From Candidatus Melainabacteria bacterium RIFCSPHIGHO2_02_FULL_34_12 (GTDB lineage Bacteria; Cyanobacteriota; Vampirovibrionia; 2-02-FULL-35-15): a stretch of DNA of 64,000 nt. Below are positions 20,533 to 62,583 of the stretch, in pieces. The position numbers were made by a program, and so were the translations under genes. Each line of letters opens with the position of its first letter. The first letter of the stretch is position 1. The notes below the pieces were generated by a model. It did no database searches. It had not been told where the DNA came from and saw nothing but the letters and a program-made list of their open reading frames with translations. Where the stretch lies: NCBI GenBank assembly GCA_001784555.1, contig MFRM01000005.1, forward strand, positions 99,802 through 163,801. Reading direction: 5' to 3'.

Positions 20533-23286
20533 ATGAAGTTTTTAAAAATTAATTTAGTCTTTTTAGCCATTCTTGTTTCTGGTTTTTATTTATTATTCTT
20601 TCAAAGTAATATTTTCTCATTCTCAAAAGAATATTCTGACTTTGCTACCCCTGAAGAACTTATAACCAGAAATCAAATTCTTTCGATGCCATGGCAAAAA
20701 TTAAACGGGCCGTTTGGCGGACAAGGATATACGATAAGATTTAGTCCAAGCAACACAAATAAAATAATTGTTACTGACTCATTTGCAGGGATTCATGTTT
20801 CAAATGACAGAGGACTTACCTGGAATGAAAGTGATGAAGGAATAGATTCACGTTCTGGAAAGTCAGGAGATGCTGTTCCAGTTTTTGTCACCACCATAGA
20901 TCCAAATAATCCAAATAGAATATGGTGTGGTGTAAAAAACGCAATGGGAGTATTTCTTTCCACAGACGGAGGAATTACATGGCAGCATAAAGATAACGGC
21001 CTGCCTAGCGGAAGTGAGGTTGAAATAAGAGGGCTTGCAGTAAAGCCAGGTGATTCGAATACTGTCTTTGCAGCAGGAGATTTAGAAGAAATAGGTCCTA
21101 TTATGGGAGCATTCCAAAGAACACAAGGAATAGTTTACAGAACTACTGATGGCGGAGAAAACTGGACCCAGGTTTTATCCGGAGGCAATCTTTTTAAGGA
21201 CATAATAATTGATCCAAATAATCCTAATACAACTTATGTAGCAAGCGGATTTTTTGACAGACATCAGCTTGAAAAATTAGAAGGTGTATATAAAAGTACT
21301 GATGGCGGGACTGTATGGTCCCAGATAAATAATGGAATAAGAAATCTTTATGTCACAAATATAAAATTTGACCCGGAAAATCCAAATATAATTTGGGGAA
21401 CAACAGGAATGATTCCTCAGTTTGACACTGATGTTGAAAATCAAGACGGCGCAATTATTGTAACTAAAGATGCAGGAATGACCTGGACAGAATCTAAAAG
21501 ACAGCGTAACAGCGGTGCACCGCAAATTTATTCAGCACTGGGAATCAGCCCGACAAATTCAAATGTAATTTATGCAGGAGCATTTGGATTTTTTGTTAAA
21601 TCGACTGATGGCGGAATGACATGGACAGAGACTGGTTTTGGTCCGCTTGGATCAAATCCTGGACATCCGATAGATATTGAAGTAGATCCAGACAATGAAA
21701 ATATTGTTTATGTAGACAGTTATGTAGGAGGGGTTTTTAAATCTACAGACGGTGGAAAAACCTGGGTAACAAATGCATTTGGATATTCCGGATCTGAAAC
21801 AAGAGGAGTGGCTGTAAGCTCTGATAATAATAATGTTTTTGCTACATCCAGATCAGGCATATTTTTAAGCAAAGATAAAGGAATAAACTGGCTGCCAGTA
21901 GGACTTGGAGATATTAAGCTGGATGAGCTTCAAGCAGTTTCTCTGAATCCTATTGATAATAATAAAATCCTTCTTGGTGACAGTCAAAATGCAATGAATT
22001 CAATATTTCTTAGTGTTGATGGAGGAATGAGCTGGAAAACAGTTTTTATGCTTTTTAATGAAGATTTTTCAGCTCGCCCAAGCAGCACAGGTTTAGACGG
22101 AGAAATTGTTTTCACTGACATAAAATGGTCTAAGTCAAATCCAAATATTGCCATTGCTTCCTGTGTAAAAAAATCATTGTTTCACGACTTTGTTGACTCA
22201 ATCGGGTGGGGAACTTTTAAATCTGTAAATGGCGGAATGACATGGACAAATAAACAAAATGGAATCTCAGGATTTAAAAATACCTGGTCTCTTGATATAG
22301 ATCCTGCAAATGAAAATATTGTTTATGCAGCTACAAATGACTCAGGCATAGTAAAAAGTATTGATGGCGGAGAAAACTGGACTCAAATAAATAATGGCTT
22401 TGATAATGAAAAATCTTTTCATTCAATATCAATTTACTCTGCAAATACAATGGTGCTTTTGGCAGGAAGTGCTAACGGACAGATTTTTAGATCTGAAGAT
22501 AATGGAGAAAGCTGGACCCCTGTATTATCTGATGTGCGTGAAAACGATAACATTGTTTCAATTGTTTTTAATCCAGTAGCATCTACACATCAGGTTTATG
22601 CCGGCGCAAATGCAACCGGATTTTATGTATCTGGTGATGATGGAAATACCTGGACTCAATTTAATGACGGTTTATTAATTCGTGAATTAGAAAATCTGGC
22701 AGTTACACCGGACGGTTCTAGTGTTTATGCAGCAACAAATGGAGGGGGGATTTTCAGGCTTCCAATAACAGGAGGCAATTTAACCCTGACCAGAAACCAA
22801 ACTGAAATCCCAAGCAATGCAGGCATAGATGCTGAAAATAATACAACTGTATCAAGCTCATCTAGCAGTGGTGGAGAAAGCCATGAAACAAGCTCAGGTG
22901 GTGTCGATGTAAATGCAAACCCTGACGATTTTTCTTTTACACTAAGTGGCAAGGCAGCACATGGGATAAAAGTTTCTTCTAAAAAACCAACAAAAAGTTT
23001 TGTCATTCTTAGTCTAGATGAAAATACAATAAATACTTTTATTAACAAGAAGGTTTTAGTTTCATCAAATTTTTCCACTAATGCTGTAAAAATTAAGCCA
23101 CCCAGTTTTATAGTAAACAGTAAAAGAAACAAAATCAAAATTTTGATTTCTATTAAATCAAAAGACAGCCTGAAAGATATTATTACAGGTGAATTGCCAG
23201 AAGAAATTAAATTATCATTTAATCTTTTACTTCCAGGCACAGAAATAATTAAGCAAACAGAGATTCCCTTAACGTACGAAGAATAA
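20533..23286 (+). CDS. secreted BNR/Asp-box repeat protein (sortilin/Ycf48-like beta-propeller)
   Basis: 917 aa; N-terminal hydrophobic signal; >10 S/T-x-D-G-G-x-T-W Asp-box repeats. Confidence 0.7.
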   Translation: MKFLKINLVFLAILVSGFYLLFFQSNIFSFSKEYSDFATPEELITRNQILSMPWQKLNGPFGGQGYTIRFSPSNTNKIIVTDSFAGIHVSNDRGLTWNESDEGIDSRSGKSGDAVPVFVTTIDPNNPNRIWCGVKNAMGVFLSTDGGITWQHKDNGLPSGSEVEIRGLAVKPGDSNTVFAAGDLEEIGPIMGAFQRTQGIVYRTTDGGENWTQVLSGGNLFKDIIIDPNNPNTTYVASGFFDRHQLEKLEGVYKSTDGGTVWSQINNGIRNLYVTNIKFDPENPNIIWGTTGMIPQFDTDVENQDGAIIVTKDAGMTWTESKRQRNSGAPQIYSALGISPTNSNVIYAGAFGFFVKSTDGGMTWTETGFGPLGSNPGHPIDIEVDPDNENIVYVDSYVGGVFKSTDGGKTWVTNAFGYSGSETRGVAVSSDNNNVFATSRSGIFLSKDKGINWLPVGLGDIKLDELQAVSLNPIDNNKILLGDSQNAMNSIFLSVDGGMSWKTVFMLFNEDFSARPSSTGLDGEIVFTDIKWSKSNPNIAIASCVKKSLFHDFVDSIGWGTFKSVNGGMTWTNKQNGISGFKNTWSLDIDPANENIVYAATNDSGIVKSIDGGENWTQINNGFDNEKSFHSISIYSANTMVLLAGSANGQIFRSEDNGESWTPVLSDVRENDNIVSIVFNPVASTHQVYAGANATGFYVSGDDGNTWTQFNDGLLIRELENLAVTPDGSSVYAATNGGGIFRLPITGGNLTLTRNQTEIPSNAGIDAENNTTVSSSSSSGGESHETSSGGVDVNANPDDFSFTLSGKAAHGIKVSSKKPTKSFVILSLDENTINTFINKKVLVSSNFSTNAVKIKPPSFIVNSKRNKIKILISIKSKDSLKDIITGELPEEIKLSFNLLLPGTEIIKQTEIPLTYEE

Positions 23287-24756
23287 AATATCCTCTTCTA
23301 ATTTAATCCCTTTAATTTTTGCAAGCCCAGGCCACGTGTTTCGCCATCGTAGGGTTGAGGTTACCTCAACCCTGGCATGATCGGGAATCTCAAATTCATA
23401 CGTCGTTATGTCGGATTTACCTGCCATAATTCTTGTATCACTTGCAATAAAAACATTCCACCAATCAGGCGGTGGAATGTCTCTTATACCGGGCGCACCA
23501 CGGTGTGCCCCTACAAATCGCGTACCATATTCACTATATGTTTCGGAGAGAATCTTTGCAAATAATTTTCCTGGTTTGTTTTTTAAATTGCCTGCATAAA
23601 TTGGTAATTTTGGACCTTTGATTTGTACGGGTTGTAGAGACGGGGTTACCCCGTCTCTACGGTTTTTATATTTAACATCAATAACAAGAATTGCATTTCT
23701 CATCGGAGAACCTGTTGGGAAGCTATGACCGAAGTTGTTGTTTGAGACTTTTGCGGTGACGATTAGTATATTGTTGCCATTTGTTGAGACGCCCCGATGG
23801 GGCGTCTTTACGGTGATCATTAGATCAACATATTTCTTCCTAAACTCATGGGGATTGCTGCTCAAGAAACTATGACTATGAATCTGGTGGTAAGGACGTG
23901 ATTTTTGTTTTATATTTGGATTATCAACGATTGAAAAACGCTCTGTCAGAGCGTCTCTACCGGGTTTCATATGACAACTTTGACACTGCACACCTTTTTT
24001 TGCTGCCGGACTATTTGCCCATTCTGTAAATGTTGAGTAAATTTGTACATTTCCATTTGAGCCATCATGGCATTTAGCACAGATGAGACTTGTTTTATAA
24101 AGCGAATTATATTTTAATTCCTCATTTTCGCCGTATTTTTGCTCTGTTTCATCATCAATTCGTTCTATTTTTATTGAGTCCTTAATTGGTCCAAACCTTA
24201 TATCCTTCATTCCTTTGCATGTTCGTAAAATATTTAAACCTTCGACTCCTTTTTTAAATGGATTTTGATCTACACTTTCAATCTTATGACAGAAATCACA
24301 GGAGATACCGTTTGTTTTTTTTGCATTGCGTTTTCTTAAATCAATATCATTAAGACGCCCTGCCGGGGCGTCTCTACCGGATAATGTTGCTTCAGGGTTG
24401 TGGCAGAGAGCACAATTCCCATTTTTATCAGGGTGATCTTCTTTAAATCGTTTATAAACTTCTAAAAAGAAAGGATTGTTTTGGCTCATGGAATGTTTAT
24501 CATCTTTCCATTCTTTGTAATAAGCTATGTGACATGAAGAACAATTTTTTAAAAGTAATTCCCCTTCTTTACTGGATGTGTTTGGGTCAAACCATTTATA
24601 GACGGTGCATGTATCGTTGTGTGTTGTAGAAGCGTATTCCAATACGCCTCTACTTTGTTTTGGTGATGAAGCAATGACGTGAAACGTTTGTGAAATAAAA
24701 ATAAATGACAAAATCGTTGTAGAAATTAAAACAATAATCTTTTTATAAATAGACAT
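23269..24756 (-). CDS. pentaheme c-type cytochrome (NrfA-like size; family uncertain)
   Basis: 495 aa; signal peptide; five CxxCH motifs (CSSCH, CALCH, CDFCH, CAKCH, CQSCH); contains six palindromic-element copies. Confidence 0.65.
   Translation of the reverse strand: MSIYKKIIVLISTTILSFIFISQTFHVIASSPKQSRGVLEYASTTHNDTCTVYKWFDPNTSSKEGELLLKNCSSCHIAYYKEWKDDKHSMSQNNPFFLEVYKRFKEDHPDKNGNCALCHNPEATLSGRDAPAGRLNDIDLRKRNAKKTNGISCDFCHKIESVDQNPFKKGVEGLNILRTCKGMKDIRFGPIKDSIKIERIDDETEQKYGENEELKYNSLYKTSLICAKCHDGSNGNVQIYSTFTEWANSPAAKKGVQCQSCHMKPGRDALTERFSIVDNPNIKQKSRPYHQIHSHSFLSSNPHEFRKKYVDLMITVKTPHRGVSTNGNNILIVTAKVSNNNFGHSFPTGSPMRNAILVIDVKYKNRRDGVTPSLQPVQIKGPKLPIYAGNLKNKPGKLFAKILSETYSEYGTRFVGAHRGAPGIRDIPPPDWWNVFIASDTRIMAGKSDITTYEFEIPDHARVEVTSTLRWRNTWPGLAKIKGIKLEEDILFFVR
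23349..23375. repeat. GTAG...CTAC-family palindromic element in cytochrome gene
   Basis: gtagggttgaggttacctcaaccctgg; 11-bp arms; encodes ARVEVTSTLR. Confidence 0.65.
23634..23660. repeat. GTAG...CTAC palindromic element (27 bp) in cytochrome gene
   Basis: gtagagacggggttaccccgtctctac; encodes RRDGVTPSL. Confidence 0.85.
23784..23811. repeat. GTAG...CTAC-family palindromic element in cytochrome gene
   Basis: ttgagacgccccgatggggcgtctttac; encodes VKTPHRGVS. Confidence 0.7.
23945..23960. repeat. partial or degenerate element (right terminus gtctctac) in cytochrome gene
   Basis: gtcagagcgtctctac; encodes GRDALTE. Confidence 0.4.
24351..24377. repeat. GTAG...CTAC-family palindromic element in cytochrome gene
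   Basis: taagacgccctgccggggcgtctctac; encodes GRDAPAGRL. Confidence 0.75.
24636..24663. repeat. GTAG...CTAC palindromic element in cytochrome gene
   Basis: gtagaagcgtattccaatacgcctctac (2 mismatches); encodes SRGVLEYAS. Confidence 0.7.
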
Positions 24757-29357: not shown

Positions 29358-30359
29358 TTACATAATCCCATAAGATTTTGGTAGTAATGTCTCATCTGCC
29401 TCTGGCATTGAAATATCTTGTCCAATTTTTAGTAAACAGAATGCTTTATCAATAATTGTAGCTAACGATTTTACAGGTGCATGGTGTGCGTTAAGGATTG
29501 CATGAGCTTTTGCTCTTTGCCCATCAAGCAAATAATCACCTTCATAGTATCTGTTCATTGATATAAATAGTCTGCATAATTCTGGATTTGATTTTTCTAA
29601 GCTTCCTAAAAAGTCTGCATTTTCAGAAAAAACAGCTGTATAGTAGCCCGCTGGATTTTGTCTAAGTTTTTCTAAAGCTTCTTCGGGAGTTCTAGCCCAT
29701 TCAGTTTTTTCAGAAAAGTTGTCACTTTCATACATATTAATAATTCCCTTGAAATGGTCGCTAAGCGAATATTCATTCCAAATATGTGAGTGTAAAAGTA
29801 TTTTCCCACTTGCTAAGTGTGATTTTGCTTTATCGACAACTGTTTGTGTTTCATTTGCCTCTGGTGGTGCAGAAACAGTTGTAGGATTGCGAACCTCAAG
29901 AACTTCAAATAATGGTGCGTATAAAGCATCAGCAATTTTTTCAGCAGTCATGTTTGGGAAGACAGCTAAATGAGCAGTATTATCGTTTACTTTATCTGAT
30001 TTATCACTTGCAACATAAATGCAAAGTACATCCCTGTCATGGTCTCTTTTTGCACCTTTTAAAGCATTAATATGTTTAGTGTCAGCTACAACTCCCAGCC
30101 AATCACCTCTTGGATCAAACTCATCAGTGATTATTATTCTTTCAGGAGGTATGCCGCTTAAAATTAGCCTTTCTCTTATGCTTGCGGCAGCACATGGAGA
30201 CTCAGCAAGAACTGCTATATTACCTGTTTCATTTGGGTAAGCAAGGATAAGTTCATTTAGATCTTTTACAGCTCGAACCGATAAATCTGGCAGAGTTTCT
30301 GCTGCAGGCAGTGATGGACTAGAAGTAAATCTTCGATTGGCTGGTTCTATAATAGTCAT
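29358..30359 (-). CDS. hypothetical protein (orphan)
   Basis: 333 aa ORF, no recognisable motif. Confidence 0.4.
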   Translation of the reverse strand: MTIIEPANRRFTSSPSLPAAETLPDLSVRAVKDLNELILAYPNETGNIAVLAESPCAAASIRERLILSGIPPERIIITDEFDPRGDWLGVVADTKHINALKGAKRDHDRDVLCIYVASDKSDKVNDNTAHLAVFPNMTAEKIADALYAPLFEVLEVRNPTTVSAPPEANETQTVVDKAKSHLASGKILLHSHIWNEYSLSDHFKGIINMYESDNFSEKTEWARTPEEALEKLRQNPAGYYTAVFSENADFLGSLEKSNPELCRLFISMNRYYEGDYLLDGQRAKAHAILNAHHAPVKSLATIIDKAFCLLKIGQDISMPEADETLLPKSYGIM

Positions 30360-30443
30360 GAAGGATATTTTATAAGCTATCAGAAGTCATAAATGTGTAT
30401 TATTAAAGATATTTTATCTTTTGAATAGCCAAGTCTTTGTAAG

Positions 30444-31286
30444 TTAAGTAAAAAGTAATTTTTGAACAAAGGGTGCTGTACTTAATCTTGCAACTGTTGC
30501 ACTATCAGTCAGTTTAATTTCTCTAGTGGCTTCTGGTGGAGGGTCTTCTTCTACAGAAAGGTTAAAGTAACGCAGATAAAGAGGTTTCATTCCTGTGAAC
30601 AAATTTACTAACTCAAGTGCAAGAAGAATACGATGTTTATTTTTAATTGCATCAGCAGAATTAATCCTTGCTTGAGTTATAAGATCCTGTCCAAGAGCAA
30701 CCTTAGCTTTAGCGATTTTTTCTTTTGCAATAGCTTGTATATCTGTTTGGTCAGTATGCTGACTTATAAGTCTAAGAAAGTCATCCTCATCGGGTGAATG
30801 AAACTTAAGTAGCTCTCTATTTCTATTAAAAGATGGTTTAAACAATTCACTGAGCAATTCATATGCTCTATCGCATGCATCTTGCATTTCCGGATCAAGA
30901 GGATGTCTTTCTTTTAATTGACCATGCCTTCGATGTGCATCCGATAATCTTTCTAAAGCACTAAAAATCGTTTCAATCCTGTTTGCATAACCGTTGGGAT
31001 TAAAAATGCCGTTTGTTATTTCCTCGTGAAAGATTTTATTTACTGCATAAATAAAGGCAGAGAGATTTAATCTGTTTACAGTTTTTCTTCTGCCTGTACT
31101 GTTTGAGGTTTTATGATAAGCAAGATCAATCTGACTCTTAAAAAGTGCTCTTTTGTAGTTAAGTCCTGACAATTCAATAATAATTTCAAATGGATCAGAG
31201 CTAGCTGAAGTAATTAACGGACTGACAACAGTTTGTGGCAGTGCTGTTGTTGTATTTCTTACGGTATCTGCAATAGCTGGTGACAT
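30444..31286 (-). CDS. hypothetical protein (orphan)
   Basis: 280 aa ORF co-oriented with the preceding orphan. Confidence 0.4.
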   Translation of the reverse strand: MSPAIADTVRNTTTALPQTVVSPLITSASSDPFEIIIELSGLNYKRALFKSQIDLAYHKTSNSTGRRKTVNRLNLSAFIYAVNKIFHEEITNGIFNPNGYANRIETIFSALERLSDAHRRHGQLKERHPLDPEMQDACDRAYELLSELFKPSFNRNRELLKFHSPDEDDFLRLISQHTDQTDIQAIAKEKIAKAKVALGQDLITQARINSADAIKNKHRILLALELVNLFTGMKPLYLRYFNLSVEEDPPPEATREIKLTDSATVARLSTAPFVQKLLFT

Positions 31287-32952: not shown

Positions 32953-34533
32953 ATGAAAGTACAAAGACCAACTCAAACTCAAAGCCAGTTGCCCGCAGAT
33001 TATTTTAGGCAAGTAGTTAACGAACACGATGGCAGATTAAATCATAAAAAGGTTCAAAGACCAAATACTTATTTGCCTGGTCAACTTGACTTGCTTGGAG
33101 AAGGTAATCCAGCTACCTGTCTCCAAATAGGAGGATTTGCATTAATTAATCCAAGGCTTATAGGTCCAGGTATTAATCAGCTTTTGTCCGATTTAGGCAG
33201 GCAGCTTCCGCTTGATTTTGTAATTTCTGATGTTTATGAACCAGAAAGATCATATGAAGCTGCACTTGTAGACGGTGCCTGGAATGTGACCGGTGAAAAA
33301 ATAAAAAGAATAGGTTCTGAAATTATATCTAACAGACTGGCTGCTTTGTCTCAAGGATCAGATGAATATCCAAGAGGCCTGCCGTTAAATAGAGTTGTCA
33401 ATTATGTCCCAAGAAGTTTATTAGAAAGTGGAGCATTAGAAAATGGTGTTCTTAAATTAGACGGCAGAGAAGTTGAAATAAAATTTGGTTTTGTCACTAC
33501 CCCTGTAAATGATCACGCTCCTGCAGTTGAATTATTGACTTCAAACGGGATTGGGAATGTATACAATGAAAAACCTTACGGACAAGCAATGAACCCTCAA
33601 TTACCTGACATTATCGAAAGACAAATGTTAGCTGGTGCAAAGGGAGTGGACTTTTTTGTTTATGGTGAAGCAATAACTTATTTAAAAGAACATGAGGATT
33701 TACTTAGACAGTTTGGAAACCTTACAGCCATTCATGCTGTTTGCAGTGAACCGTGGCTACCGGAACCCGGAAGAGAATGGTTGATGATTGAGGAAATTGC
33801 AGGAAGCGGGGTTTTTGCTGATACTGCCTCCCATTCAGCAGCAATGACGGATGATTTTATTAGATGGTGGTGTAGGAATGAAGGATTAAGTTTAAACAAT
33901 GCTTCTCTGGATGCGTTTGACAGAGCAAGAATTCTTGGATATGAAGCAGGTGACTTACATCTTGAAACGTATGGAACAACAAAAGGTTCTCTTAGTACGA
34001 AAGATGGCAGGGTAGAGATTTCTCTTAGCGGTGGAAAAGGCGCAGGAGGCAGGCCAGGTGGTTCCCAAGGAACAGAAGAATCATTCTTAGGAATGGTCCT
34101 TGAGTTTGAAAAAGGAAGAGTAATAGTAAATCTTGGTTATCCTAAAAAACATAATCCGCATGTAGTTTATATTCCTGATGACAGAGCAGAAAAAGTTGAA
34201 TGCCATGAAATTTTAAATGGTGCTCTTGGCTACAATGTAATGCTTGCGGATTGGGCAGTTAAATCACAAGGACATGACATTGCAGATGGAAGAATCCAGA
34301 ATTGTTCAACAGCAGCAAGAAATGCCATGGCTTATTTAACAAGAGCATATGCTCAGGCAAAGCAAGAAGGTTATCTGCTTAGTTTTTATCCTTTAGGTGA
34401 AATACCCATGGGTAACTTTGCGCAAGGAGCAGTATATCCAAGCATAGAAATTGCAGGAACTCAATCTGCATTTGAAGTTATGGGGAAATCTGCAGGGATA
34501 AATAGAAACAAATTTCCTTTTTCTCTCTCTTGA
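32953..34533 (+). CDS. hypothetical protein (orphan)
   Basis: 526 aa ORF, Gly-rich stretch, no recognisable domain. Confidence 0.4.
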   Translation: MKVQRPTQTQSQLPADYFRQVVNEHDGRLNHKKVQRPNTYLPGQLDLLGEGNPATCLQIGGFALINPRLIGPGINQLLSDLGRQLPLDFVISDVYEPERSYEAALVDGAWNVTGEKIKRIGSEIISNRLAALSQGSDEYPRGLPLNRVVNYVPRSLLESGALENGVLKLDGREVEIKFGFVTTPVNDHAPAVELLTSNGIGNVYNEKPYGQAMNPQLPDIIERQMLAGAKGVDFFVYGEAITYLKEHEDLLRQFGNLTAIHAVCSEPWLPEPGREWLMIEEIAGSGVFADTASHSAAMTDDFIRWWCRNEGLSLNNASLDAFDRARILGYEAGDLHLETYGTTKGSLSTKDGRVEISLSGGKGAGGRPGGSQGTEESFLGMVLEFEKGRVIVNLGYPKKHNPHVVYIPDDRAEKVECHEILNGALGYNVMLADWAVKSQGHDIADGRIQNCSTAARNAMAYLTRAYAQAKQEGYLLSFYPLGEIPMGNFAQGAVYPSIEIAGTQSAFEVMGKSAGINRNKFPFSLS

Positions 34534-38392: not shown

Positions 38393-38947
38393 ATGAAATC
38401 CGCAAGAAGATATTTAATAGTACTAACAGCATTAATCTCGTTAATAGCATTTTCAAACAATCTTTCCATTGCACAAAATAAAGAGACAAACTTAGAGGAA
38501 AGAAAAGCAATGACAGGCGGAGGCGGGACCTCTGGAGTTGTTGATTCAGCATGTGCATGTCTGGAGCCAGGCAATAAAGCTATTTTAAAAGCTTACGGTT
38601 CGCTAGAAGAAGATGAATGGCCAAAAGCAATAGTTGAATCAAAAAATGCCATCGAAACAATTAATAACCTTGCTAAGACATGTAAGTGTCCTGAAGTTGA
38701 TACATATAAAAAGGTTGCTGACTCATTTCTAAAATATGCTCAGGGTGGAAATCACCTGGATGGAGCTGATGAACCAAATTGTCCATTTGCACTTAAGGTC
38801 TACGGAGAAGCTATCAGCGGATTAACTGAGGCAATACCGAAAATTACAAACAAAGACGTTAAAGATAATGTTAAAAACATTCTTGAATATGCTCAGGAAG
38901 AACAGCAGTTTGTAAAAGATGAGTGTCAAGAAGAGAAAAAATCCTGA
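38393..38947 (+). CDS. secreted Cys-containing hypothetical protein
   Basis: 184 aa; signal peptide MKSARRYLIVLTALISLIAFS; SD aaaggag. Confidence 0.45.
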   Translation: MKSARRYLIVLTALISLIAFSNNLSIAQNKETNLEERKAMTGGGGTSGVVDSACACLEPGNKAILKAYGSLEEDEWPKAIVESKNAIETINNLAKTCKCPEVDTYKKVADSFLKYAQGGNHLDGADEPNCPFALKVYGEAISGLTEAIPKITNKDVKDNVKNILEYAQEEQQFVKDECQEEKKS

Positions 38948-46751: not shown

Positions 46752-46832
46752 ATATAATAATCTAGGCTTGACCTCACAAATATTGTCAGAGTTGTGAGGA
46801 GCGGTAGCGACGAGATACATCACATCAAAATT

Positions 46833-46877
46833 GTCATTGCGAGAAGTCCGCCTGAGGCGGACGACGAAGCAATCTCA
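46833..46877. repeat. TGTCATTGCGAG...GAAGCAATC family copy B (left arm of MITE-like inverted pair)
   Basis: tgtcattgcgagaagtccgcctgaggcggacgacgaagcaatctca; internal palindrome gtccgcctgaggcggac. Confidence 0.65.
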
Positions 46878-46926
46878 TATTGCGATTAAGCTTAAGGAAG
46901 GTTTATTATTACCGTTATTTGCGTTG

Positions 46927-46966
46927 TGAGATTGCTTCACCCGCCTAAGGCGGGTTCGCAATGACA
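46927..46966. repeat. TGTCATTGCGAG...GAAGCAATC family copy C (inverted right arm)
   Basis: tgagattgcttcacccgcctaaggcgggttcgcaatgaca is the reverse complement of copy B with a variant core; ends 8 bp before the stop of the 912-aa gene. Confidence 0.65.
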
Positions 46967-46973
46967 TGAACTG

Positions 46974-49712
46974 TTAAAACAAATCTATCAATTCTTCCTC
47001 TGCTGATTTTGAACTTCCGCTGCCTGGTCTGACTTTAACAGATTCTACTTTTGGTCTTTTTTCTTTTTCTCCCGGAATAGTTTCTACAAGCGCTTCTTCA
47101 GGCGGAAGATCTTTCACTGGGGCTGATTCAAATGATTTTACTGCCTGAGGCTGACTTTCAGACGGAGTAGGTGCTGTACCTAGCTCTTGTGATTGTGCTC
47201 CACTTTCAACATAACCTTTTAAATCTATTACTTTGTTTGAAATCATAACAGTGCCAGGCTTTGTGGTAAAAGGTGTATATAAAATTGATTGCTGAATTGC
47301 CCTGGCATCATATGCAATTCTGCCTAAAGCATTACTTGAGATTTGAATTTTACCCCTGTCTTCATTATCTACAATAAGTGCACCGTTAATTGAAACGTTT
47401 CCATCTATTCTTAAATTCCCTTTTACATAAATTATTCCATTAAAATCAACAGGACTTCTACTGTCTCCTCTTATTTCTACATCGCCTATGGGTCTGCCCT
47501 GATTATCTGCCCTGGTGTCTATTATTAAAATCCCTTTTCCTGCAAGAACATTATTTTCATCGTAAGTAGGAGTTCCGTCTACATATGTGAGTAACATATA
47601 TCCCACAGGAATATCATTTTCATCTCTAGGAATAGTCCCGTCACTTGTATATAAATCAGCAAGTTCTGCATATTGCTCAATGTTTGTTCTAAATAAGTTT
47701 CTTGCATTTGCAGACTGTGGAATGCCCAGCGCAAAATCTTTTGGAATAATGTGTTTTTCTGCTTCTGTGCCCTCAATTTTTTCTTTTGAGATTATTGGTG
47801 GCACAAACTGAAATACCTGATCGCCCTCATAATGAAAATCTTTCAAGCCTGGAGGTACCAACTCAATAGTATTTCTTCCTATATTACTCACCACTGCATA
47901 ATCCAGCTCAGAAAGTCTGTCGCTTTCTTTATAAACTGCTACTAACGAACCTGGTGTAAATCCAACCTCTGCCGGTGATTTTGGCAAAGGGGGCGTAGTT
48001 TCTGTGCCTGTATTTGTGTCAATTGGTTCTGATGGTTCTTCCGGAGGTCCTTCTACTACCAGATTAGTATTTGAAATATATGTAGGTTCTGTGAGTGTAG
48101 TCATAGCTGTTGTAGCTCCGAGTATCTGATAACTTCCCCCATCAAAGGAAATCTCTCCATTAGTAGTAACTGCACTTTGGATATTTGGGATCTGTCTTTG
48201 GACTACTTCACTGACGGTTCTGGTTATTTTCCCTACCATTGCTGATGTTTCAAGTAACCATGTAGTTTCAAGATCAATATTTGCAAAAGGACTTAATTTT
48301 TCTTTCTCTGTCAGATCTTCTTCCTCCTCTTCTTCTTGTTCAACAAGCTCTTCTTCGGGCTCTTCTTTTTTCTCTTCTTCCTTTTTTTCTTCAAGCTCCT
48401 CTTCCTCGTCAATTATAGGAAGCAGGTTTTCTACCACTCTAAGTCCAAGTAACGTTAAACTAGAAGTTACTACAGCTGTGTTATTAGTTATTTCAATATG
48501 ATCCTCATCAGGTGCAATAACATTAAAAATCCATGTATTTGATAGACCTCCTTCAGTTGCAACAACCAGTGAGTGAACACCAGGCTCAACATTTCTATCA
48601 ATGCTTAAGCTTATTAAAAGTTGTTTGCCGTTAGATAATTGATCTTTTAATTTTGGAATTATTCCGCAGACGTCAGGAACTACTACAGGAAGCCCTTTTT
48701 TCAAATAGAGCTCATCTCCGGAAACAGTAAGGTAAATATTTCTTTGTCCAGCCTTGATTTCAAGAAATTGTTTATTGTCATTTGTGGTTACCTCATAAAT
48801 AGCAGGTCTTAAGCTCCCATCAAAAGATGGGATTATATAAAATTCACCTCTGGCATTTTCCCAATAAAAATTATTTAACCCAGCCATTACATCCATTCCA
48901 ATTAAAAATTCAACTGTAGGACCAGCTTTAACATCTTCTATGACAATATTTTTATTTGAAAACCTGGGCTGGTGATTATATGAAAAGTTCTCTCCTGCTA
49001 CAAGAAACTCGGATCTTTTATTTCCTTCACTGTAATTTGGAGACAATGCAGTAATTTTTGGAATTGGAAGCTTAGCTTTATACGGTGTTTTTTGGTCCTG
49101 GACTATATCTTTAAGTTTAAGATTTATTTTTTTATCTTTGTAAACAACAACCATTGTTCCGGGATTTAAAACTGTTCCCTGCGGAATATCAATGTCTCCT
49201 ACCATTGAAATATTTGCTTCTGGTCTTAAAGCAGGGCTTTCTTCTGCTTGTTCCAATGGAGTTTGCGGTCGTTCTTGTTCTTCACTGGTGGTTTCTATTT
49301 CTTCAGGCGGCTCCCTAAATGTGATATATCTCAGGATCTTTAATATTTCATCTGCGTAATATTCATCAAAATCTTCTGTTACTTCACTAAATTCATCTTC
49401 AAAATCTTCTTCACCAAATTCTTCGAATCCTTCATCTTCTGATTCACTGCTCTTAAGTTTTTCTTCCTGCTTGGGAGAAGGTTTTATTTTTTGTTTTGTG
49501 TTTAGCCTTGCTTTTATTCTTTCATTTATTCCTTCACTAATTGCAATTGCAGCCATGGTATTCTGGTTTGATTGCATCTGGGAAAGATTTACAGACACAA
49601 GGAGATAAGATACTCCAACCAAGCCTGAAAAAATAAAGGTGAGAATTAAAGCAAAAGGAAGAGTTAAGCCGTATTCGTTTCTTTTGTTATTTATTGCCAA
49701 GTGAATGACCAT
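46974..49712 (-). CDS. large membrane-anchored protein, TadG/PilX-like N-terminus, acidic low-complexity middle, beta-rich C-term
   Basis: 912 aa; N-term KRNEYGLTLPFALILTFIFSGLV resembles TadE/TadG/PilX pseudopilin-like N-termini; poly-E/K tracts. Confidence 0.4.
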   Translation of the reverse strand: MVIHLAINNKRNEYGLTLPFALILTFIFSGLVGVSYLLVSVNLSQMQSNQNTMAAIAISEGINERIKARLNTKQKIKPSPKQEEKLKSSESEDEGFEEFGEEDFEDEFSEVTEDFDEYYADEILKILRYITFREPPEEIETTSEEQERPQTPLEQAEESPALRPEANISMVGDIDIPQGTVLNPGTMVVVYKDKKINLKLKDIVQDQKTPYKAKLPIPKITALSPNYSEGNKRSEFLVAGENFSYNHQPRFSNKNIVIEDVKAGPTVEFLIGMDVMAGLNNFYWENARGEFYIIPSFDGSLRPAIYEVTTNDNKQFLEIKAGQRNIYLTVSGDELYLKKGLPVVVPDVCGIIPKLKDQLSNGKQLLISLSIDRNVEPGVHSLVVATEGGLSNTWIFNVIAPDEDHIEITNNTAVVTSSLTLLGLRVVENLLPIIDEEEELEEKKEEEKKEEPEEELVEQEEEEEEDLTEKEKLSPFANIDLETTWLLETSAMVGKITRTVSEVVQRQIPNIQSAVTTNGEISFDGGSYQILGATTAMTTLTEPTYISNTNLVVEGPPEEPSEPIDTNTGTETTPPLPKSPAEVGFTPGSLVAVYKESDRLSELDYAVVSNIGRNTIELVPPGLKDFHYEGDQVFQFVPPIISKEKIEGTEAEKHIIPKDFALGIPQSANARNLFRTNIEQYAELADLYTSDGTIPRDENDIPVGYMLLTYVDGTPTYDENNVLAGKGILIIDTRADNQGRPIGDVEIRGDSRSPVDFNGIIYVKGNLRIDGNVSINGALIVDNEDRGKIQISSNALGRIAYDARAIQQSILYTPFTTKPGTVMISNKVIDLKGYVESGAQSQELGTAPTPSESQPQAVKSFESAPVKDLPPEEALVETIPGEKEKRPKVESVKVRPGSGSSKSAEEELIDLF

Positions 49713-49735
49713 ATCTTTTTTATAGCATATGGGCT

Positions 49736-50512
49736 TTATTCTTTAAGAGAAACTTCAGATTCTTCCCACTTAGGATTTTTCCATTGTGTACCGTCTTCAA
49801 ATATTACCCTGCCTACTCTTACACTGTAGGCTTCTCCATTTCGCTTTGAATCCAACTCATTATATTCAATAACTTTTTTCTCATAAGGGATAATTGGATC
49901 TGAGACTATAGTTTCCTTCATTAGTGTTTGGGTTTGTGTAAAAGGAATCCTTCTTTCCCAGATTAAGAGTGCTGAGTTAATTATTTTAGGTGTCTGATTT
50001 GAAAGTTTTACCCAGTATTGAAAGTCTACATTTTTTATTTTCAGAAATTGTGTTTTTGTGTTTTTGACATCTGCATCTACGATAAATAAAGGATCTTCTT
50101 GACTTGTAACTACCTCTAAATATCTTTTAGCTTTTTTTGTATCCTTAATTACTTGTTTGCGTTCATTTAGTCCTTGTCTTAAAACTATTTTTTTCTCATA
50201 ATTTTTTTGTCGAATTTCTGCTTTTTTTGCTCTTTCTTCTTCTATGAGTCTTCTTTTAATTTCTTTCTTTTCAAGTCTTTCTAATCGCTTTTTTTTCCTT
50301 GCTTCTTGTTTTTCTTTTTTAAGTCTTTCTTTAAGTTCTTTTCTTTCAAGTCTTTGTTTTTCTCGTAATTGAGCTGTTTCTGATGTAGGTGGTTCAGTTA
50401 CTTCTTTTTTTTCTGGTTCTGTTGTTTCTTGAGAGTAAGATATTTTTTGATTCACCGTAGATATCAGGCATATCAGTGTAATAGTTACAATAATTTTTTT
50501 TAAGTTTTTCAT
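49736..50512 (-). CDS. secreted K/E-rich hypothetical protein
   Basis: 258 aa; signal peptide; charged coiled-coil then globular C-term; sits between secretin and the 912-aa gene. Confidence 0.35.
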   Translation of the reverse strand: MKNLKKIIVTITLICLISTVNQKISYSQETTEPEKKEVTEPPTSETAQLREKQRLERKELKERLKKEKQEARKKKRLERLEKKEIKRRLIEEERAKKAEIRQKNYEKKIVLRQGLNERKQVIKDTKKAKRYLEVVTSQEDPLFIVDADVKNTKTQFLKIKNVDFQYWVKLSNQTPKIINSALLIWERRIPFTQTQTLMKETIVSDPIIPYEKKVIEYNELDSKRNGEAYSVRVGRVIFEDGTQWKNPKWEESEVSLKE

Positions 50513-50521
50513 AATATCTTT

Positions 50522-52216
50522 CTACCCACTTGGACTACCAATCTTAATAGCTCTATCTTTTTCAGCAGTTATATTTTCTTCAGGTATGTTTCTGATGGTG
50601 GGTGTAATAAGTACAATTAATTCACTCTGGCTCTTTTGTCTGTTTCTGTTGTTTATATAATCTCCAATAAGAGGAATCTTAGTTAAAAATGGTAATCCTA
50701 CTCTGTCTGTGGAGGTGTTATCAATTATTAATCCGCCAATTGCTACAGTTTCACCATCCCGAACCTGGACATCGGCATTAATTCTTCTTCTGGTAGTTGT
50801 TGCAGGAACAGTTACACCGTTTTGAGTAGTGGTTCCAGAATTATCTGAAACCTCAATTTGTATTTTTGCAGTAATTAAACCACCGGCACCAACTATTGGG
50901 GTAATGCTTAATGCAGTACCTGCAGTGATTCTTTGTAATTGTTGAGTAGCAACCACACCTATTTGTTGACCTTGTCCGGTTGCAGCACCTAATACAAGGT
51001 TAGTGTCCTGGTCAATATTTATCATCGCAGTTCTGCCGGAAAGTGAAACAAGTTTTGGGTATGCACGAACCTGTGCCAGTCCTGCTCTTTCAAGATAAGT
51101 GATTTGTTTATTAAAGATTTTCCACATATCTGCACTGAAGTCAAAAAGTGTAACACCTCTGGCTATTTTTCCTATGACAAATCCACTATCCCTGAATATT
51201 TGAAGATCTTCTGATGCTCTTTTTTGCACCTCAATTAATTTTAGTTCCAGCTCAACCTGTGGCAATGGCTTATCAATTCTATCCAGGAATTCTTTGATTC
51301 TTCTTAAATCATTTGGAGAACCGTCAGCAATAATCGAGTTTTGGTCATTGCTTATTCTTACGTTTGTTCTTACTTCTACAGGCAATAATGCCTGAACATC
51401 CATTGCTTCAAGATTCATAAGTGGAAACATCTTGGTTTCCTGACCCACTGTAAAGTTTTTATTTAGCCTGTTATAAATAACATAGGTTTCATTAGCATCA
51501 CCTGATGTAGTATAGTCGAATGATGTACCGCTTAGCACAAGCTTTAGTGCTTCTTCGATGTTTACATCTCTTACGCGACAGCTCACCCGCTCAGTAGGTG
51601 TGGCAGTAAGAACAATATCAATTCCGTACTTATTTGCAAGGTCTTTTAAAAGTGTTGCTAAGTCCTGATTATCGTATGATATGTCTGCAGTTCTTTCCAG
51701 TAGTGGCAGACTCTTGTCAACAGTAGTAGCTCCTAACCCAAAAATCATTATAGGATTTGCAGTGCCGCCTTTTATTACTGTGTAGCCGGTTCCAGTAGTT
51801 GTAAAATTTACCATTGATGCATCAATCAAGCTAAAAAAAGCTTCTTCAAAAGTCTGATCCTGGATTTCTATTACTGCAATGGTTTCATCATCTCTTATGT
51901 CACTTCCCACCGAAAGGCTTTTCCCGCTTATTCTTGCAAGGGTTGCAAAGGCATCTTTAATTGCGATGTTTCTTGCAGAAAAAGTAATTAAATCTTCACT
52001 GGGTATTTTTTTTGCCTCTTTTTTTGTAACAGACTCATCTTTTTTTGTTTTTTGATTTAAAATATCTTTCCCAAGTTCCGTTTCGATCGTAGGTGCTATG
52101 TCTAAATCAAAATCTTGGGCAATTACCTCACCTGAAGTGCAAATTAAGATAAATGCTAAAAGGAAAATTAAAAGTAAAAAAAGTTTTTTACTAAAATGTT
52201 TTATTATCTTTTTCAT
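50522..52216 (-). CDS. secretin (GspD/PilQ/RcpA-CpaC superfamily outer-membrane channel)
   Basis: 564 aa; signal peptide; two secretin N-domains; C-terminal secretin core ...VGLPFLTKIPLIGDYINNRNRQKSQSELIVLITPTI. Confidence 0.75.
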   Translation of the reverse strand: MKKIIKHFSKKLFLLLIFLLAFILICTSGEVIAQDFDLDIAPTIETELGKDILNQKTKKDESVTKKEAKKIPSEDLITFSARNIAIKDAFATLARISGKSLSVGSDIRDDETIAVIEIQDQTFEEAFFSLIDASMVNFTTTGTGYTVIKGGTANPIMIFGLGATTVDKSLPLLERTADISYDNQDLATLLKDLANKYGIDIVLTATPTERVSCRVRDVNIEEALKLVLSGTSFDYTTSGDANETYVIYNRLNKNFTVGQETKMFPLMNLEAMDVQALLPVEVRTNVRISNDQNSIIADGSPNDLRRIKEFLDRIDKPLPQVELELKLIEVQKRASEDLQIFRDSGFVIGKIARGVTLFDFSADMWKIFNKQITYLERAGLAQVRAYPKLVSLSGRTAMINIDQDTNLVLGAATGQGQQIGVVATQQLQRITAGTALSITPIVGAGGLITAKIQIEVSDNSGTTTQNGVTVPATTTRRRINADVQVRDGETVAIGGLIIDNTSTDRVGLPFLTKIPLIGDYINNRNRQKSQSELIVLITPTIRNIPEENITAEKDRAIKIGSPSG

Positions 52217-52357
52217 AAATTATGTGACTATATAACAAAAAAAAAGACAATTCATTTGAGTTAAGGTTCCATCTTGTAAGGTCATGGTTGTCCTGAACTG
52301 AATATATATCTTATGTTTATCTTAAACGATTATCTTTAACTGTGATAATGATAATCT

Positions 52358-53671
52358 CTACGTAGATTTACGCTTATGTTCTGTCTTAATCTTTTCAATT
52401 ATGTCTTTGACTTGTTGCTCTGAAAGACCGCTTGATATTCCGGAACCTTCTTCTTGTTTTGATTCCTTAAAATCACCTTTGACTACAGAGAAATTTGATG
52501 CAAGCCATGGTGTTGGAGAAGGTGCTCTGGGAGCATCCGGATCATTTGTTTTATTTGTATATGGATTATATCTGTCGATAATTGGATCAGTGTCTTTTTG
52601 TAATTTTTCTACTTCTTTTTGGATTACTTCATTGTGCTGTGCAGTTAATGATTGTTTTAAAATATTCTTTTCTTCATTAACATCTGCTTTAGCAGGAATT
52701 ACAGTGGCAGATTCAAGCAATGATGAGCTGGTACCTGATACACTGGCAGGTTTTTTTGGATCAATTACTTTTGTAGGCTGAAGAGGTCTTTGTTGTTGTT
52801 CTCTGGCAGACGGAGTAATTATCTTTACATCAGGCGGAGGTTGCATTTCTTTTAGCTTTGTAACCACACTGACAAGAGCAGGCTTCTTAGCTTCTTCCCT
52901 AAGTCTTCTTGCTTCCTGAGCTGCCTGTCTGGCAGCTTCTCTTGCTTGAATAAGTGCAAGCTTTGCAGCCTCTTTTGCTTTTTTAAGTCTTTCTTTTTCT
53001 TGATGCTTTTCTGATTTTACTCTTTGTTTTTCAGTACGGATTCTTTCTTTTTCAGCACGTTTTTCAGCTCTTAATCCTTCTTTTTCCTGTCTAAGAACCT
53101 GACGTAATTTGTCTTTTTCTTTTCTTAAATATTCTTTTTCTTTTTGAAGGAGTTTCTTTTCTCCCTCCCTTGCTTTTTTAACCCTTAATTTTAATTTTTC
53201 ACGGGCTTTCTTTTCCTTTATTTTTTGTTTTTTCTTTAAAAGCTTTATCTTAAGTGCTTTTTTAATTCTAAGTTTCCTTAGCTTATCAAGCTTTGCTCTG
53301 AGTTTCTTTTTCTTTTTTTCTCTTTCAGCACGAATCCCAGTTAATTTTTTAATCTGAGCTAGTTTTTTAGCTTTTATTTTTTTATCTTTTAGAAATTTTT
53401 GCTTTTTAAGTTTTGACTTAAGAAGTTTAAGCTTTTTCTTTAATGTCTTGTCTTTTTTACCTTTTTTTGAGCCTTTTAACTTTTGAAGTTTTAATTTATC
53501 TTTCTTTTTACTTTTTAATTTCTTTGAGCTTTTTGCAGAACCAAAATCAAAAGATAAGCCACTATATAGCTTTTTTCTTTCAAGCTCACAATCCCTACAG
53601 GATCCAGGCCTGTAGTCTACTGTGTTCTTTGTGCTTAGCTTTATCCCGCAAACCTTACAAAATTCTGCCAT
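52358..53671 (-). CDS. N-terminal zinc-ribbon, extremely Lys-rich coiled-coil protein
   Basis: 437 aa; CKVCG...CRDCE then ~250 aa of K/E/R repeats, Pro/Ser-rich tail. Confidence 0.4.
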   Translation of the reverse strand: MAEFCKVCGIKLSTKNTVDYRPGSCRDCELERKKLYSGLSFDFGSAKSSKKLKSKKKDKLKLQKLKGSKKGKKDKTLKKKLKLLKSKLKKQKFLKDKKIKAKKLAQIKKLTGIRAEREKKKKKLRAKLDKLRKLRIKKALKIKLLKKKQKIKEKKAREKLKLRVKKAREGEKKLLQKEKEYLRKEKDKLRQVLRQEKEGLRAEKRAEKERIRTEKQRVKSEKHQEKERLKKAKEAAKLALIQAREAARQAAQEARRLREEAKKPALVSVVTKLKEMQPPPDVKIITPSAREQQQRPLQPTKVIDPKKPASVSGTSSSLLESATVIPAKADVNEEKNILKQSLTAQHNEVIQKEVEKLQKDTDPIIDRYNPYTNKTNDPDAPRAPSPTPWLASNFSVVKGDFKESKQEEGSGISSGLSEQQVKDIIEKIKTEHKRKST

Positions 53672-53851: not shown

Positions 53852-53924
53852 GGGCCCATAGCTCAGTTGGTAGAGCGTTTCGTTCGCAACGAAGAGGTGG
53901 CGGGTTCGAATCCCGCTGGGTCCA
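53852..53924 (+). tRNA. tRNA-Ala (anticodon CGC)
   Basis: cloverleaf with G3:U70 wobble pair, anticodon loop TTCGCAA, T-loop GGTTCGAATCC. Confidence 0.8.
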
Positions 53925-53935
53925 GAGAACAATTA

Positions 53936-53963
53936 GTAGAGCCGCGATTAATCGCGGCTCTAC
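53936..53963. repeat. 28-bp GTAG...CTAC palindromic element (perfect) between tRNA-Ala and sigma factor 3' ends
   Basis: gtagagccgcgattaatcgcggctctac is its own reverse complement; T-rich flanks on both strands, so a possible bidirectional terminator. Confidence 0.85.
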
Positions 53964-53967
53964 TGTC

Positions 53968-55947: not shown

Positions 55948-56391
55948 ATGAAAAGTATAGACTCCGAAAATCAAATTTCTTGTTTAGTGGATTATGGCAT
56001 TGTTTATTCAAAAAGAGATATGATTAGAATTTTAAGAGATCTGGATCGTGTTGAATATATAGATATGATTGATAATCTTTCTGTAGCAAAAGGCGAAGGT
56101 TTTGTAATTGAAGTTTATGCAAATTCATATGACTCAACCATAGTGTTTAATAACAGACTTCATATTAATGTTAATGGCTTTGACTTTCTGAAAATAAAAA
56201 CTACCCCTGAAAAAATTATTGAACTTATTTCTGGTCACAGAATAATAAGATTAAAACCACTTACAAATATTTTAAAATCAAACCAAGCAGCAATAGAAGA
56301 AGAAATTGATGAACAAAGAATTGCTCTTGCCAGCCAGTTTGGCTGTGATAATGAAGTAGAGATGGATTATACGGATCAGGGGAATTTATGA
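55948..56391 (+). CDS. hypothetical protein
   Basis: 147 aa; SD aagga upstream. Confidence 0.4.
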   Translation: MKSIDSENQISCLVDYGIVYSKRDMIRILRDLDRVEYIDMIDNLSVAKGEGFVIEVYANSYDSTIVFNNRLHINVNGFDFLKIKTTPEKIIELISGHRIIRLKPLTNILKSNQAAIEEEIDEQRIALASQFGCDNEVEMDYTDQGNL

Positions 56392-62067: not shown

Positions 62068-62583
62068 ATGTTATTAATAATAGCAGTTAGCAACAATATT
62101 CCTTGGCGTAATCTAATACTAGCTGGTACAGATGGCGGTTGGGTTAGTCCTTGGTGGGCTTCAAGCGTAGGTGGCATACAAGCAGCAAAACCAGTTTCTG
62201 ATTCAGATGAAAAATCTAAGTATCATATTTTTGGAATAGCATTTGATGGACCAGTTAAGGTTCATGATGATCTTAGAATAGGGATTCGCAGCGATGGCAG
62301 ATACTTAGTAATTAACGGTACCATTGGATCACTTAAATTAGTTGATCATGAAATTCCGATTACAGATTTATCTGCTGATGAAGAAACACTAGATACAAAT
62401 CCTAAACTTAAAGAATTTTTTGAAAAGACAATTTCAGTTGCAGAAAGTCTAAATGCTAAACCAGGTATTTTGGTAATTGATCCAACAGGCATGTCAACTG
62501 ATATGTTAGTAGAAAAACTTGCACAGTTGTTTGGAATAAATCTCCAAGAGCCTTCCGATAGACCTGATGAGCAGCCTCAGTAA
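62068..62583 (+). CDS. hypothetical protein (orphan)
   Basis: 171 aa ORF after 336-bp AT-rich spacer. Confidence 0.35.
   Translation: MLLIIAVSNNIPWRNLILAGTDGGWVSPWWASSVGGIQAAKPVSDSDEKSKYHIFGIAFDGPVKVHDDLRIGIRSDGRYLVINGTIGSLKLVDHEIPITDLSADEETLDTNPKLKEFFEKTISVAESLNAKPGILVIDPTGMSTDMLVEKLAQLFGINLQEPSDRPDEQPQ

Follow-up and report, generated by a model that had tools for sequence, protein, structure and literature searches.

A secretin gene cluster encoding a giant pseudopilin-like protein in Melainabacteria, a probable part of a type IV filament machine

Introduction

The locus described here consists of a secretin gene and three companion genes in a 64,000-nucleotide stretch of DNA (hereafter, the window) from Candidatus Melainabacteria bacterium RIFCSPHIGHO2_02_FULL_34_12 (assembly GCA_001784555.1; contig MFRM01000005.1, positions 99,802 to 163,801). 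Its closest described counterparts are the type IVa pilus and the type II secretion system (T2SS). PilY1 goes together with the minor-pilin tip complex of type IVa pili (PilX/FimU-PilVWXE), and ComZ of Thermus is an example of a large minor pilin. The absence of a glutamate at position +5 (Glu5) is typical of the tip subunits GspK and PilX. Cyanobacteria, the sister lineage of these bacteria, use the secretin PilQ for pili and for slime export (PMC12475490). Published Melainabacteria genomes encode pilA, pilB, pilC, pilD, and pilT (PMC5877343), and Vampirovibrio has been reported to possess a complete complement of type IV pilus genes (PMC4451040). Small proteins that dock on or plug secretins also have precedents, namely, PilP and the HR domain of GspC, BfpG, and the recently described SlkA/SlkB plugs of Pseudomonas aeruginosa (PMC12531336, PMC13392014).

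The four genes of the locus encode, from the upstream end, a 437-residue protein (g437), a secretin, a 258-residue protein (g258), and a giant protein of 912 residues (g912; Table 1). The secretin, g258, and g912 are convincingly linked by the tight spacing of their genes, and all three are envelope proteins. We consider it probable that the locus is the envelope-distal part of a type IV filament machine (i.e., of the type IV pilus/T2SS class) whose motor genes are located elsewhere. The arrangement, in which a secretin, an accessory protein, and a giant tip pseudopilin occur together without PilMNOP, is unusual, and its parts fit a known kind of machine.

A preliminary description of the window had delineated the four co-oriented open reading frames (ORFs) exactly, in both coordinates and lengths. 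It had also recognized a secretin with a signal peptide, a zinc ribbon and a basic coiled coil in g437, a signal peptide and a charged helix in g258, and an N-terminal motif, acidic tracts, and a beta-rich C terminus in g912. These assignments agree with the domain searches, orthologue alignments, and AlphaFold2 (AF2) models reported below. A C-terminal beta-sandwich of about 125 residues in g258 had been overlooked.

Results

The giant protein g912 belongs among the pseudopilins, and it most resembles the Glu5-less tip subunits PilX and GspK. Its N terminus is nearly invariant in 52 aligned sequences and reads R-x3-G↓(F/L/M)-T-L-P-F-A-L-I-L-T-F-I-F-S. Arg11 and Gly15 are invariant in 21 g912 sequences, the segment TLPFALILTFIF shows full invariance or at least 90% conservation across the 52, and position +5 is occupied by Phe in all members. 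The AF2 model (mean predicted local distance difference test [pLDDT] score, 74.7; 630 residues at 70 or above) contains one continuous helix of 54 residues at positions 17 to 70, with block pLDDT values of about 82 to 92 over residues 21 to 70. This predicted length is that of the alpha1 helix of type IV pilins. The alignment and the model also reveal acidic disordered linkers, and the model places Ig-like and beta-rich domains downstream of the helix (Table 1).

Curated models recognized little of this protein. Pfam and NCBIfam searches of the window's g912, g258, and g437 returned nothing usable, and PDB sequence and profile searches were empty for all three. N_methyl had no match in the g912 family, T2SSK (GspK) had no Pfam match in g912, and the PilX_N (PF14341) threshold was not reached by the family (1 of 52 members, E = 0.4). 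Models of the TadE, Tad, and pilus-CpaD types matched neither g912 nor its 51 homologues at an E value of ≤1. A Foldseek search of the PDB, which the preliminary description had proposed as a check, matched the g912 model only to generic tandem-Ig proteins (titin, receptor protein tyrosine phosphatases, and S-layer proteins) and was uninformative about the C-terminal domain.

Remote relatives were more revealing. Of 1.84 billion representative proteins, only 90 matched the g912 profile. They comprise the g912 family, second-tier full-length relatives, generic multi-Ig proteins, and a set of short proteins matching the C-terminal domain. The second-tier relatives (868 to 930 residues; E values of 1e-97 to 1e-136; about 26 to 31% identity) lack the C-terminal tail. 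The short proteins (about 120 to 610 residues) align at profile positions of about 690 to 817, and their N termini are mostly of the PilX type (e.g., ...RGGFAIVIVLLVSVV... and ...ERGIAILLVVLIVAIL...), hydrophobic, with the pattern G-[FIL]-[AT]-[LI]. In a set of 25 of these short proteins, Pfam PilX_N was found in 9 proteins and DUF7305 (weakly) in 2. An hhalign comparison of the g912 family with this set scored 99.5% (E = 6.8e-23) over g912 residues 667 to 818, a score that is partly circular because the 25 proteins had been picked from among the g912-profile matches; the presence of PilX_N is the independent element. A C-terminal motif, GxGILxVxG...FxGxIYVxGxLxIxGN...YD, is common to g912 and the PilX_N proteins. 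Of the TadE/TadG/PilX likeness proposed in the preliminary description, the PilX part is thus upheld, whereas the Tad part found no match.

The gene context of the second-tier relatives also points to pilins. At three loci, a gene for a canonical prepilin of 142 to 148 residues follows directly downstream, abutting the giant gene or overlapping it. The leaders of these prepilins (SG↓MTILELMIALVIL, QG↓VTLVELLISLVI, and TG↓VSLVEILVTIVI) are of the G↓MTILE or G↓VTLVE type. A T2SSF/PilC gene lies 9 kb upstream of the giant gene at one second-tier locus (L024).

Compared with the type IVa minor-pilin tip complex, g912 is alike in its Gly-1 prepilin N terminus, long alpha1 helix, lack of Glu5, large domain that is a possible adhesin, PilX_N-type C-terminal domain, and pilin-paired relatives. 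It differs in its length of 912 residues, its tandem TIG/Ig domains, its acidic low-complexity linkers, and its EEELIDLF tail, and it is encoded beside a secretin, outside any minor-pilin operon. Tad/Flp systems are unlike the locus, which has neither a TadE-, Tad-, Flp-, or CpaC-type signal nor Tad genes in the window.

Variation in g912 was seen within the source species. In contigs from two other samples (L004 and L006), codon 528 (positions 48129 to 48131) has changed from TAT to TAG (Tyr528 to stop), which cuts the protein ahead of the PilX-like C-terminal domain; one of these contigs also carries His380 to Asp at an invariant or nearly invariant residue. Four further contigs show no difference from the window. 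With this stop codon, a loss-of-function allele of a surface adhesin may be segregating.

Table 1. Features of the secretin locus and its surroundings (positions in the window unless a locus is named)
Feature	Residues	Positions	Strand	Remarks
g437 gene		52358-53671	-	437 aa; exact ORF
g437 zinc ribbon, CxxC...CxxC	5-29	53585-53659	-	
Secretin gene		50522-52216	-	564 aa; exact ORF
g258 gene		49736-50512	-	258 aa; exact ORF
g258 beta-sandwich	131-245	49778-50122	-	Predicted (AF2)
g912 gene		46974-49712	-	912 aa; exact ORF
g912 prepilin-type N terminus and alpha1 helix	1-70	49503-49712	-	
g912 two TIG/Ig-like domains	~215-430	48423-49070	-	Predicted (AF2); weak Pfam TIG in 21/52 members
g912 beta-rich domain	470-835		-	Predicted (AF2)
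g912 PilX-type C-terminal domain	667-818	47259-47714	-	
g912 invariant EEELIDLF at the end of the disordered tail		46977-47000	-	
Structured intergenic region, 222 nt, 3' of g912		46752-46973	-	Nested inverted repeats; convergent with SDR gene
Promoter-like site before g437		53733-53704	-	
tRNA-Ala(CGC)		53852-53924	+	Rfam tRNA, 69 bits; ARAGORN
GC-rich hairpin after tRNA-Ala		53934-53965		Perfect, 13-14 bp; upstream boundary of module
ORFs without Pfam match (seven)		12876-14278, 29358-31286, 32953-34533, 38393-38947, 62068-62583		171-526 aa; Pfam E≤1e-5
Solitary PilC/T2SSF gene, L027		10001-11278 (L027)		No pilB-pilT-pilC operon
Solitary PilC/T2SSF gene, L049		3435-4745 (L049)		No pilB-pilT-pilC operon

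The identity of the second gene product is clear. Pfam Secretin (PF00263) matched residues 375 to 541 (positions 50594 to 51094) with 123 bits against a cutoff of 27.5 (E = 1.3e-35). Toward the N terminus, FecR_C was above its cutoff (31.8 versus 24.4 bits), whereas STN (24.6 versus 28.4) and Secretin_N (24.0 versus 28.2; residues 261 to 320) were below theirs. The probable order of domains is a signal peptide, an extra N-terminal domain (residues of about 75 to 150), an STN/FecR_C-like N0 domain (179 to 240), an N1/N3-type Secretin_N domain, and the core. The signal peptide, as read from the sequence, is of the Sec type and has no canonical lipobox. No AMIN domain was detected at a Pfam E value of ≤0.1, and the S-domain is absent. 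Conservation across the clade is higher for the secretin (62 to 81% identity) than for the other three proteins.

The subfamily of the secretin is less definite. NCBIfam scores were 113.3 for GspD (TIGR02517; cutoff, 351.35), 111.4 for PilQ (TIGR02515; 284.35), 89 for SctC (238), and 86 for MshL (250). Because no curated subfamily cutoff was reached, the protein can be called a secretin and cannot be placed in a subfamily. In a PDB sequence search, pIV of phage f1 was the best match (8.5e-23), followed by a T2SS GspD and, in third place, PilQ of Deinococcus radiodurans (5.7e-16); RcpA was only the tenth (4.4e-12). PHROG 1012 (M13 pIV) matched at 2.6e-41 and was collinear over residues 176 to 541, which supports a probable N0-N3-core layout.

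Each of the known secretins shares part of this picture. With the GspD-GspK pair of the T2SS, the locus has in common a secretin of the probable N0/N1 type without AMIN and a largest pseudopilin without Glu5, and GspD is nominally the top NCBIfam model; however, a single Secretin_N-type domain is present here versus N1-N3 in GspD, and there is no gspC-M operon. The PilQ proteins of Cyanobacteria and Deinococcus-Thermus are similar in the core and, probably, in N1 and an STN-like N0, but the secretin of the locus is much shorter, lacks AMIN or multiple ring domains, and is not the last product of a pilMNOQ operon. Phage pIV provides the best-scoring model, a collinear N0-N3-core match, and a similar overall length; in contrast to pIV, the secretin described here is chromosomal, fixed in the clade, without other phage genes, and extended by an N-terminal domain.

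For the third gene product, g258, the 45 homologues all belong to the same clade, and Pfam matched none of them. In their alignment, a signal peptide with a conserved ...SQ(E/D) end is followed by a P/Q-rich linker that varies, a helical region rich in charged residues, and about 125 C-terminal residues that are strongly conserved. The AF2 model (pLDDT, 85.5) consists of a single 84-residue helix (residues 44 to 127) and the beta-sandwich. Fold matches were weak (an ApaG-like beta-sandwich at 3.3e-4 and the trimeric lipoprotein SadB, a coiled coil plus sandwich, at about 2e-3). Like the known secretin accessories (PilP/GspC HR, TsaP, SlkA/SlkB, and BfpG), g258 is small and exported, has a beta-sandwich, and is encoded directly after the secretin. 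It differs from them in showing no sequence kinship or convincing fold kinship, in lacking a lipobox, and in having a long single helix that they lack. From its position and compartment, we infer that g258 may be a periplasmic secretin partner or accessory protein.

The four genes are separated by 141 bp (g437 to secretin), 9 bp (secretin to g258), and 23 bp (g258 to g912), and the GC content of the locus (about 0.33 to 0.38) is the same as that of its flanks. The window is contained in a 103-kb metagenome contig (ERZ4903137), and identical copies occur in several other assemblies. For g912, 56 homologues were found (46 to 61% identity), and the named ones are from Candidatus Melainabacteria. 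Among the 185,579 species genomes scanned, g912 occurred in only 10, i.e., groundwater Melainabacteria metagenome-assembled genomes (MAGs), one "Caenarcanales" MAG, and one MAG titled Gammaproteobacteria. A scan of metagenomes with the secretin alignment recovered within-clade loci only. For the g437, g258, and g912 families, no Pfam match reached threshold, and all three are restricted to a single clade of low-GC Vampirovibrionia (Melainabacteria) from groundwater and bioreactors.

The MAG titled "uncultured Gammaproteobacteria bacterium" (GCA_964602915.1; CAZRTB010000001.1, L015/L009) contains a whole SMC-to-MetK region of the Melainabacteria type, with 51 to 86% protein identity to the window. 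Its title is probably a taxonomic mislabel.

The order g437-secretin-g258-g912 was unbroken in every recovered locus. However, the SMC-ScpAB...ThyX-Crp-MetK region is collinear as a whole across the clade loci, and because this entire neighborhood is syntenic, conserved adjacency is weak evidence of functional linkage. The adjacency could then be incidental: the secretin and g912 would serve separate systems, g258 and g437 would be unrelated, and the order would have been kept by a young collinear clade. The secretin could serve T2SS-like secretion, DNA uptake, or slime export, the second-tier giant genes have no secretin neighbor, and type IV pilus genes such as pilC are solitary in the lineage. 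We nevertheless consider incidental adjacency unlikely, since the gaps of 9 and 23 bp and the shared orientation imply cotranscription of the secretin, g258, and g912 genes. The block also remains intact where its flanks change, i.e., at one locus with a different downstream flank (L007) and at two where DNA has been inserted between the sigma gene and g437 (about 5.7 kb in L013 and about 5.4 kb in L047). The secretin, g258, and g912 all reside in the envelope, and a filament tipped by a pseudopilin needs a secretin as its conduit.

The position of g437 is less certain. Its zinc ribbon (CKVCG...NTVDYRPGSCRDCELERKKLYS) is essentially invariant among about 10 to 11 aligned orthologues and is followed by a K/R/E-rich basic coiled coil of about 250 residues; the ribbon and the coil are both conserved in the alignment, as are the C-terminal motifs DPIIDRYNPY, PSPTPWLA, and GLS..QVKDIIEKIK. 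Neither a transmembrane segment nor a signal peptide was found in the 11-orthologue alignment, and in the absence of a hydrophobic segment, g437 is taken to be cytoplasmic. No relative came up in Pfam, NCBIfam, or the PDB, and PHROG gave only a weak match to a family of unknown function. The gene lies directly upstream of the secretin gene in all recovered loci and may head the operon; its membership in the module, argued for by co-orientation, unbroken adjacency, and no terminator-like site detected between the two genes, is uncertain. The four-gene module of the preliminary description therefore stands for the three tightly spaced genes of envelope proteins and is uncertain for cytoplasmic g437, 141 bp upstream.

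The preliminary description had also overlooked a plus-strand tRNA-Ala gene and a hairpin between the sigma-70 gene and g437, both of which are on the minus strand. We considered whether g437 might be an anti-sigma factor that acts on the neighboring sigma-70 factor and set this idea aside. The opposite-strand tRNA and hairpin intervene, the insertions in L013 and L047 part the two genes, and the sigma factor is group 1/2-like, with regions 1.2 to 4, and is not of the extracytoplasmic function type.

The tail of g912 invites a different assignment of that protein. The segment of about 75 residues ending in EEELIDLF is present only in the clade in which the g912 gene is next to the secretin gene, while the second-tier relatives stop at a profile position of about 825. 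Because of this distribution, g912 might be a trans-periplasmic connector anchored in the inner membrane, analogous to GspC or PilP/PilNO, with the N-terminal helix as its anchor and a long periplasmic body reaching across the envelope; its tail would dock on the N-domains of the secretin or on the beta-sandwich of g258, and it would stand in for the PilMNOP alignment complex. No pilMNOP genes were found in the window, g912 lacks Glu5, and g258 is clade restricted and tightly linked, all of which would suit a connector. On the other hand, the C-terminal domain of g912 is homologous to those of PilX-type pseudopilins, the protein keeps the Gly-1/FTL prepilin motif, the genes of its relatives are paired with those of canonical pilins, and the lack of Glu5 has its precedent in tip subunits; docking itself is a putative interaction read from a sequence pattern. 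This assignment, too, seems unlikely to us. In a related proposal, PilMNOP would have been replaced, with the EEELIDLF tail docking on the secretin or g258; its extreme version needs no dedicated PilB/PilC motor. We regard this as somewhat less likely again.

Genes for the motor were sought in the window and beyond. In a survey of window ORFs of at least 120 residues (Pfam E value of ≤1e-5), we detected no ATPase, platform, PilMNOP, or Tad gene, in agreement with the preliminary description; because seven ORFs had no Pfam match, this absence is not absolute. None of the seven has a prepilin-like N terminus. One (positions 38393 to 38947) encodes a product with a signal peptide and many Cys residues. 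A six-frame scan of the window found no canonical prepilin leaders, using a strict pattern that missed g912 as well. In the 10 kb of the source contig past the window, only ribosomal and housekeeping genes (rpoA and similar) and no pilus motor genes were present.

Searches with the PilC protein of L024 as the query retrieved hundreds of PilC proteins, several of them named Melainabacteria or Vampirovibrionia. Two of these (P0302 and P0294) are encoded by solitary genes between recJ and an S1-domain gene, with recJ and a phosphoribosyltransferase gene on one side and small unannotated ORFs and the S1-domain gene on the other. The tetranucleotide composition of the PilC contigs correlated at 0.96 to 0.99 with the window and clade loci versus 0.85 to 0.93 with second-tier and other loci. 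Sequencing run SRR7369907 yielded both P0302 and a contig with a g912 orthologue. Given the solitary PilC genes on compositionally matching contigs, pilus genes appear to be scattered in this lineage. In the most straightforward interpretation, they are dispersed, and the locus studied here is the outer-membrane and tip part.

The preliminary description had offered as one option a minimal or novel secretin system. In such an autonomous device, the secretin, g258, and g912 would export or display g912 without a PilB/GspE-type ATPase or PilC. The absence of ATPase and platform genes from the 64-kb window and the next 10 kb, along with the restriction of the three partner families to the clade, would be expected of it. 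However, secretins are not known to operate in the absence of an energizing machine in the inner membrane. The prepilin-type leader of g912 implies the pilin pathway, and PilC genes are present on contigs that match the clade. Nothing supports a motor-less reading, which is very unlikely.

Descent from a filamentous inovirus-like prophage, with the secretin as a pIV homologue and g912 as a pIII-like adsorption protein, would explain why f1 pIV and PHROG 1012 are the best matches of the secretin but is scarcely credible, given that short secretins in general would presumably match the pIV profile, that no protein of the locus other than the secretin matched a phage family of known function (neither g912 nor g258 has a PHROG match), that no Zot/pI ATPase, replication, or coat genes were found in the window and no flanking att sites or core genes were seen, that the GC content equals that of the flanks, and that the locus is fixed between housekeeping genes throughout the clade; we therefore rejected a prophage origin.

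The remaining window genes are those of an ordinary chromosome (dnaN, a Mur ligase gene, aspS, hom, ruvB, the aconitase gene, ffh, metK, thyX, a Crp-type regulator gene, the SMC-ScpA-ScpB genes, the sigma-70 gene, and pyrD). The structured region between g912 and the SDR gene folds into a multibranched RNA (minimum free energy, -79.7 kcal/mol; z = -7.7 versus shuffled sequences) and has no Rfam match. It occurs once in the window and only in contigs of the source species; relatives lack it, and in several of them the SDR gene directly abuts. The transcription unit probably ends in this region, which would be either a (bidirectional) terminator or an inserted element specific to the species.

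Two further observations concern other parts of the window. At positions 20533 to 24756, the gene for a 917-residue Sortilin/BNR-repeat protein adjoins that for a 495-residue multihaem cytochrome with MtrC/c554-like matches; this pair points to a possible extracellular electron-transfer or redox capacity in a Melainabacterium. Between ScpB and the sigma gene, a 147-residue ORF without a Pfam match (positions 55948 to 56391, plus strand) is conserved throughout the clade, and its homologue (41% identity) in a second-tier genome (L026, positions 5577 to 5996) lies beside flhA and near the giant pseudopilin gene of that genome.

Discussion

The reading that we favor, an envelope-distal part of a type IV filament machine with its motor elsewhere, corresponds to one option of the preliminary description, i.e., the outer-membrane half of a pilus system with its motor genes at another site; that option is retained for the type IV pilus/T2SS class and not for Tad. 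According to this reading, a prepilin peptidase would cut g912 after Gly15, and the hydrophobic helix would hold the protein in the inner membrane. Like the Glu5-less GspK and PilX, g912 would cap the minor-pilin priming complex and be pushed through the secretin on the tip of the filament, where its Ig-like and beta-rich domains might be displayed as an adhesin. The g258 protein may attach to the secretin from the periplasmic side and assist its assembly, act as a spacer, or plug it, and g437 is possibly cotranscribed with the other three genes. The extension ATPase, the PilC platform, the prepilin peptidase, and the major pilin would be encoded elsewhere, as suggested by the scattering of pilus genes in the lineage.

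Several observations weigh against this interpretation, in addition to the partial circularity of the hhalign score and the collinearity of the whole neighborhood noted above. g912 fails the Pfam N_methyl and PilX_N models and has no Glu5. The secretin is not assignable to the PilQ clade, since it has no AMIN domain and no pilMNOP neighbors and since pIV-type models score highest. The giant genes of the second tier have no adjacent secretin gene. The functional role of g258 is purely inferred, and the tie between the PilC genes and the clade consists of composition and a shared sample.

If the envelope-distal reading is correct, a probable role can be given to three Pfam-less families in the nonphotosynthetic sister lineage of Cyanobacteria. 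The EEELIDLF peptide and the linked g258 are candidates for a new secretin-docking interaction; if true, docking of this peptide would be a new way to couple a secretin to a type IV filament. Because the pilus genes appear to be dispersed, finders that depend on colocalization (of the TXSScan type) could report incomplete type IV pili in these genomes.

Some relatives of these bacteria are predatory. In the uncultured bacteria studied here, the candidate giant tip adhesin could mediate attachment. The locus would represent a lineage-specific elaboration of a well-known machine, one that leaves the current understanding of that machine standing.

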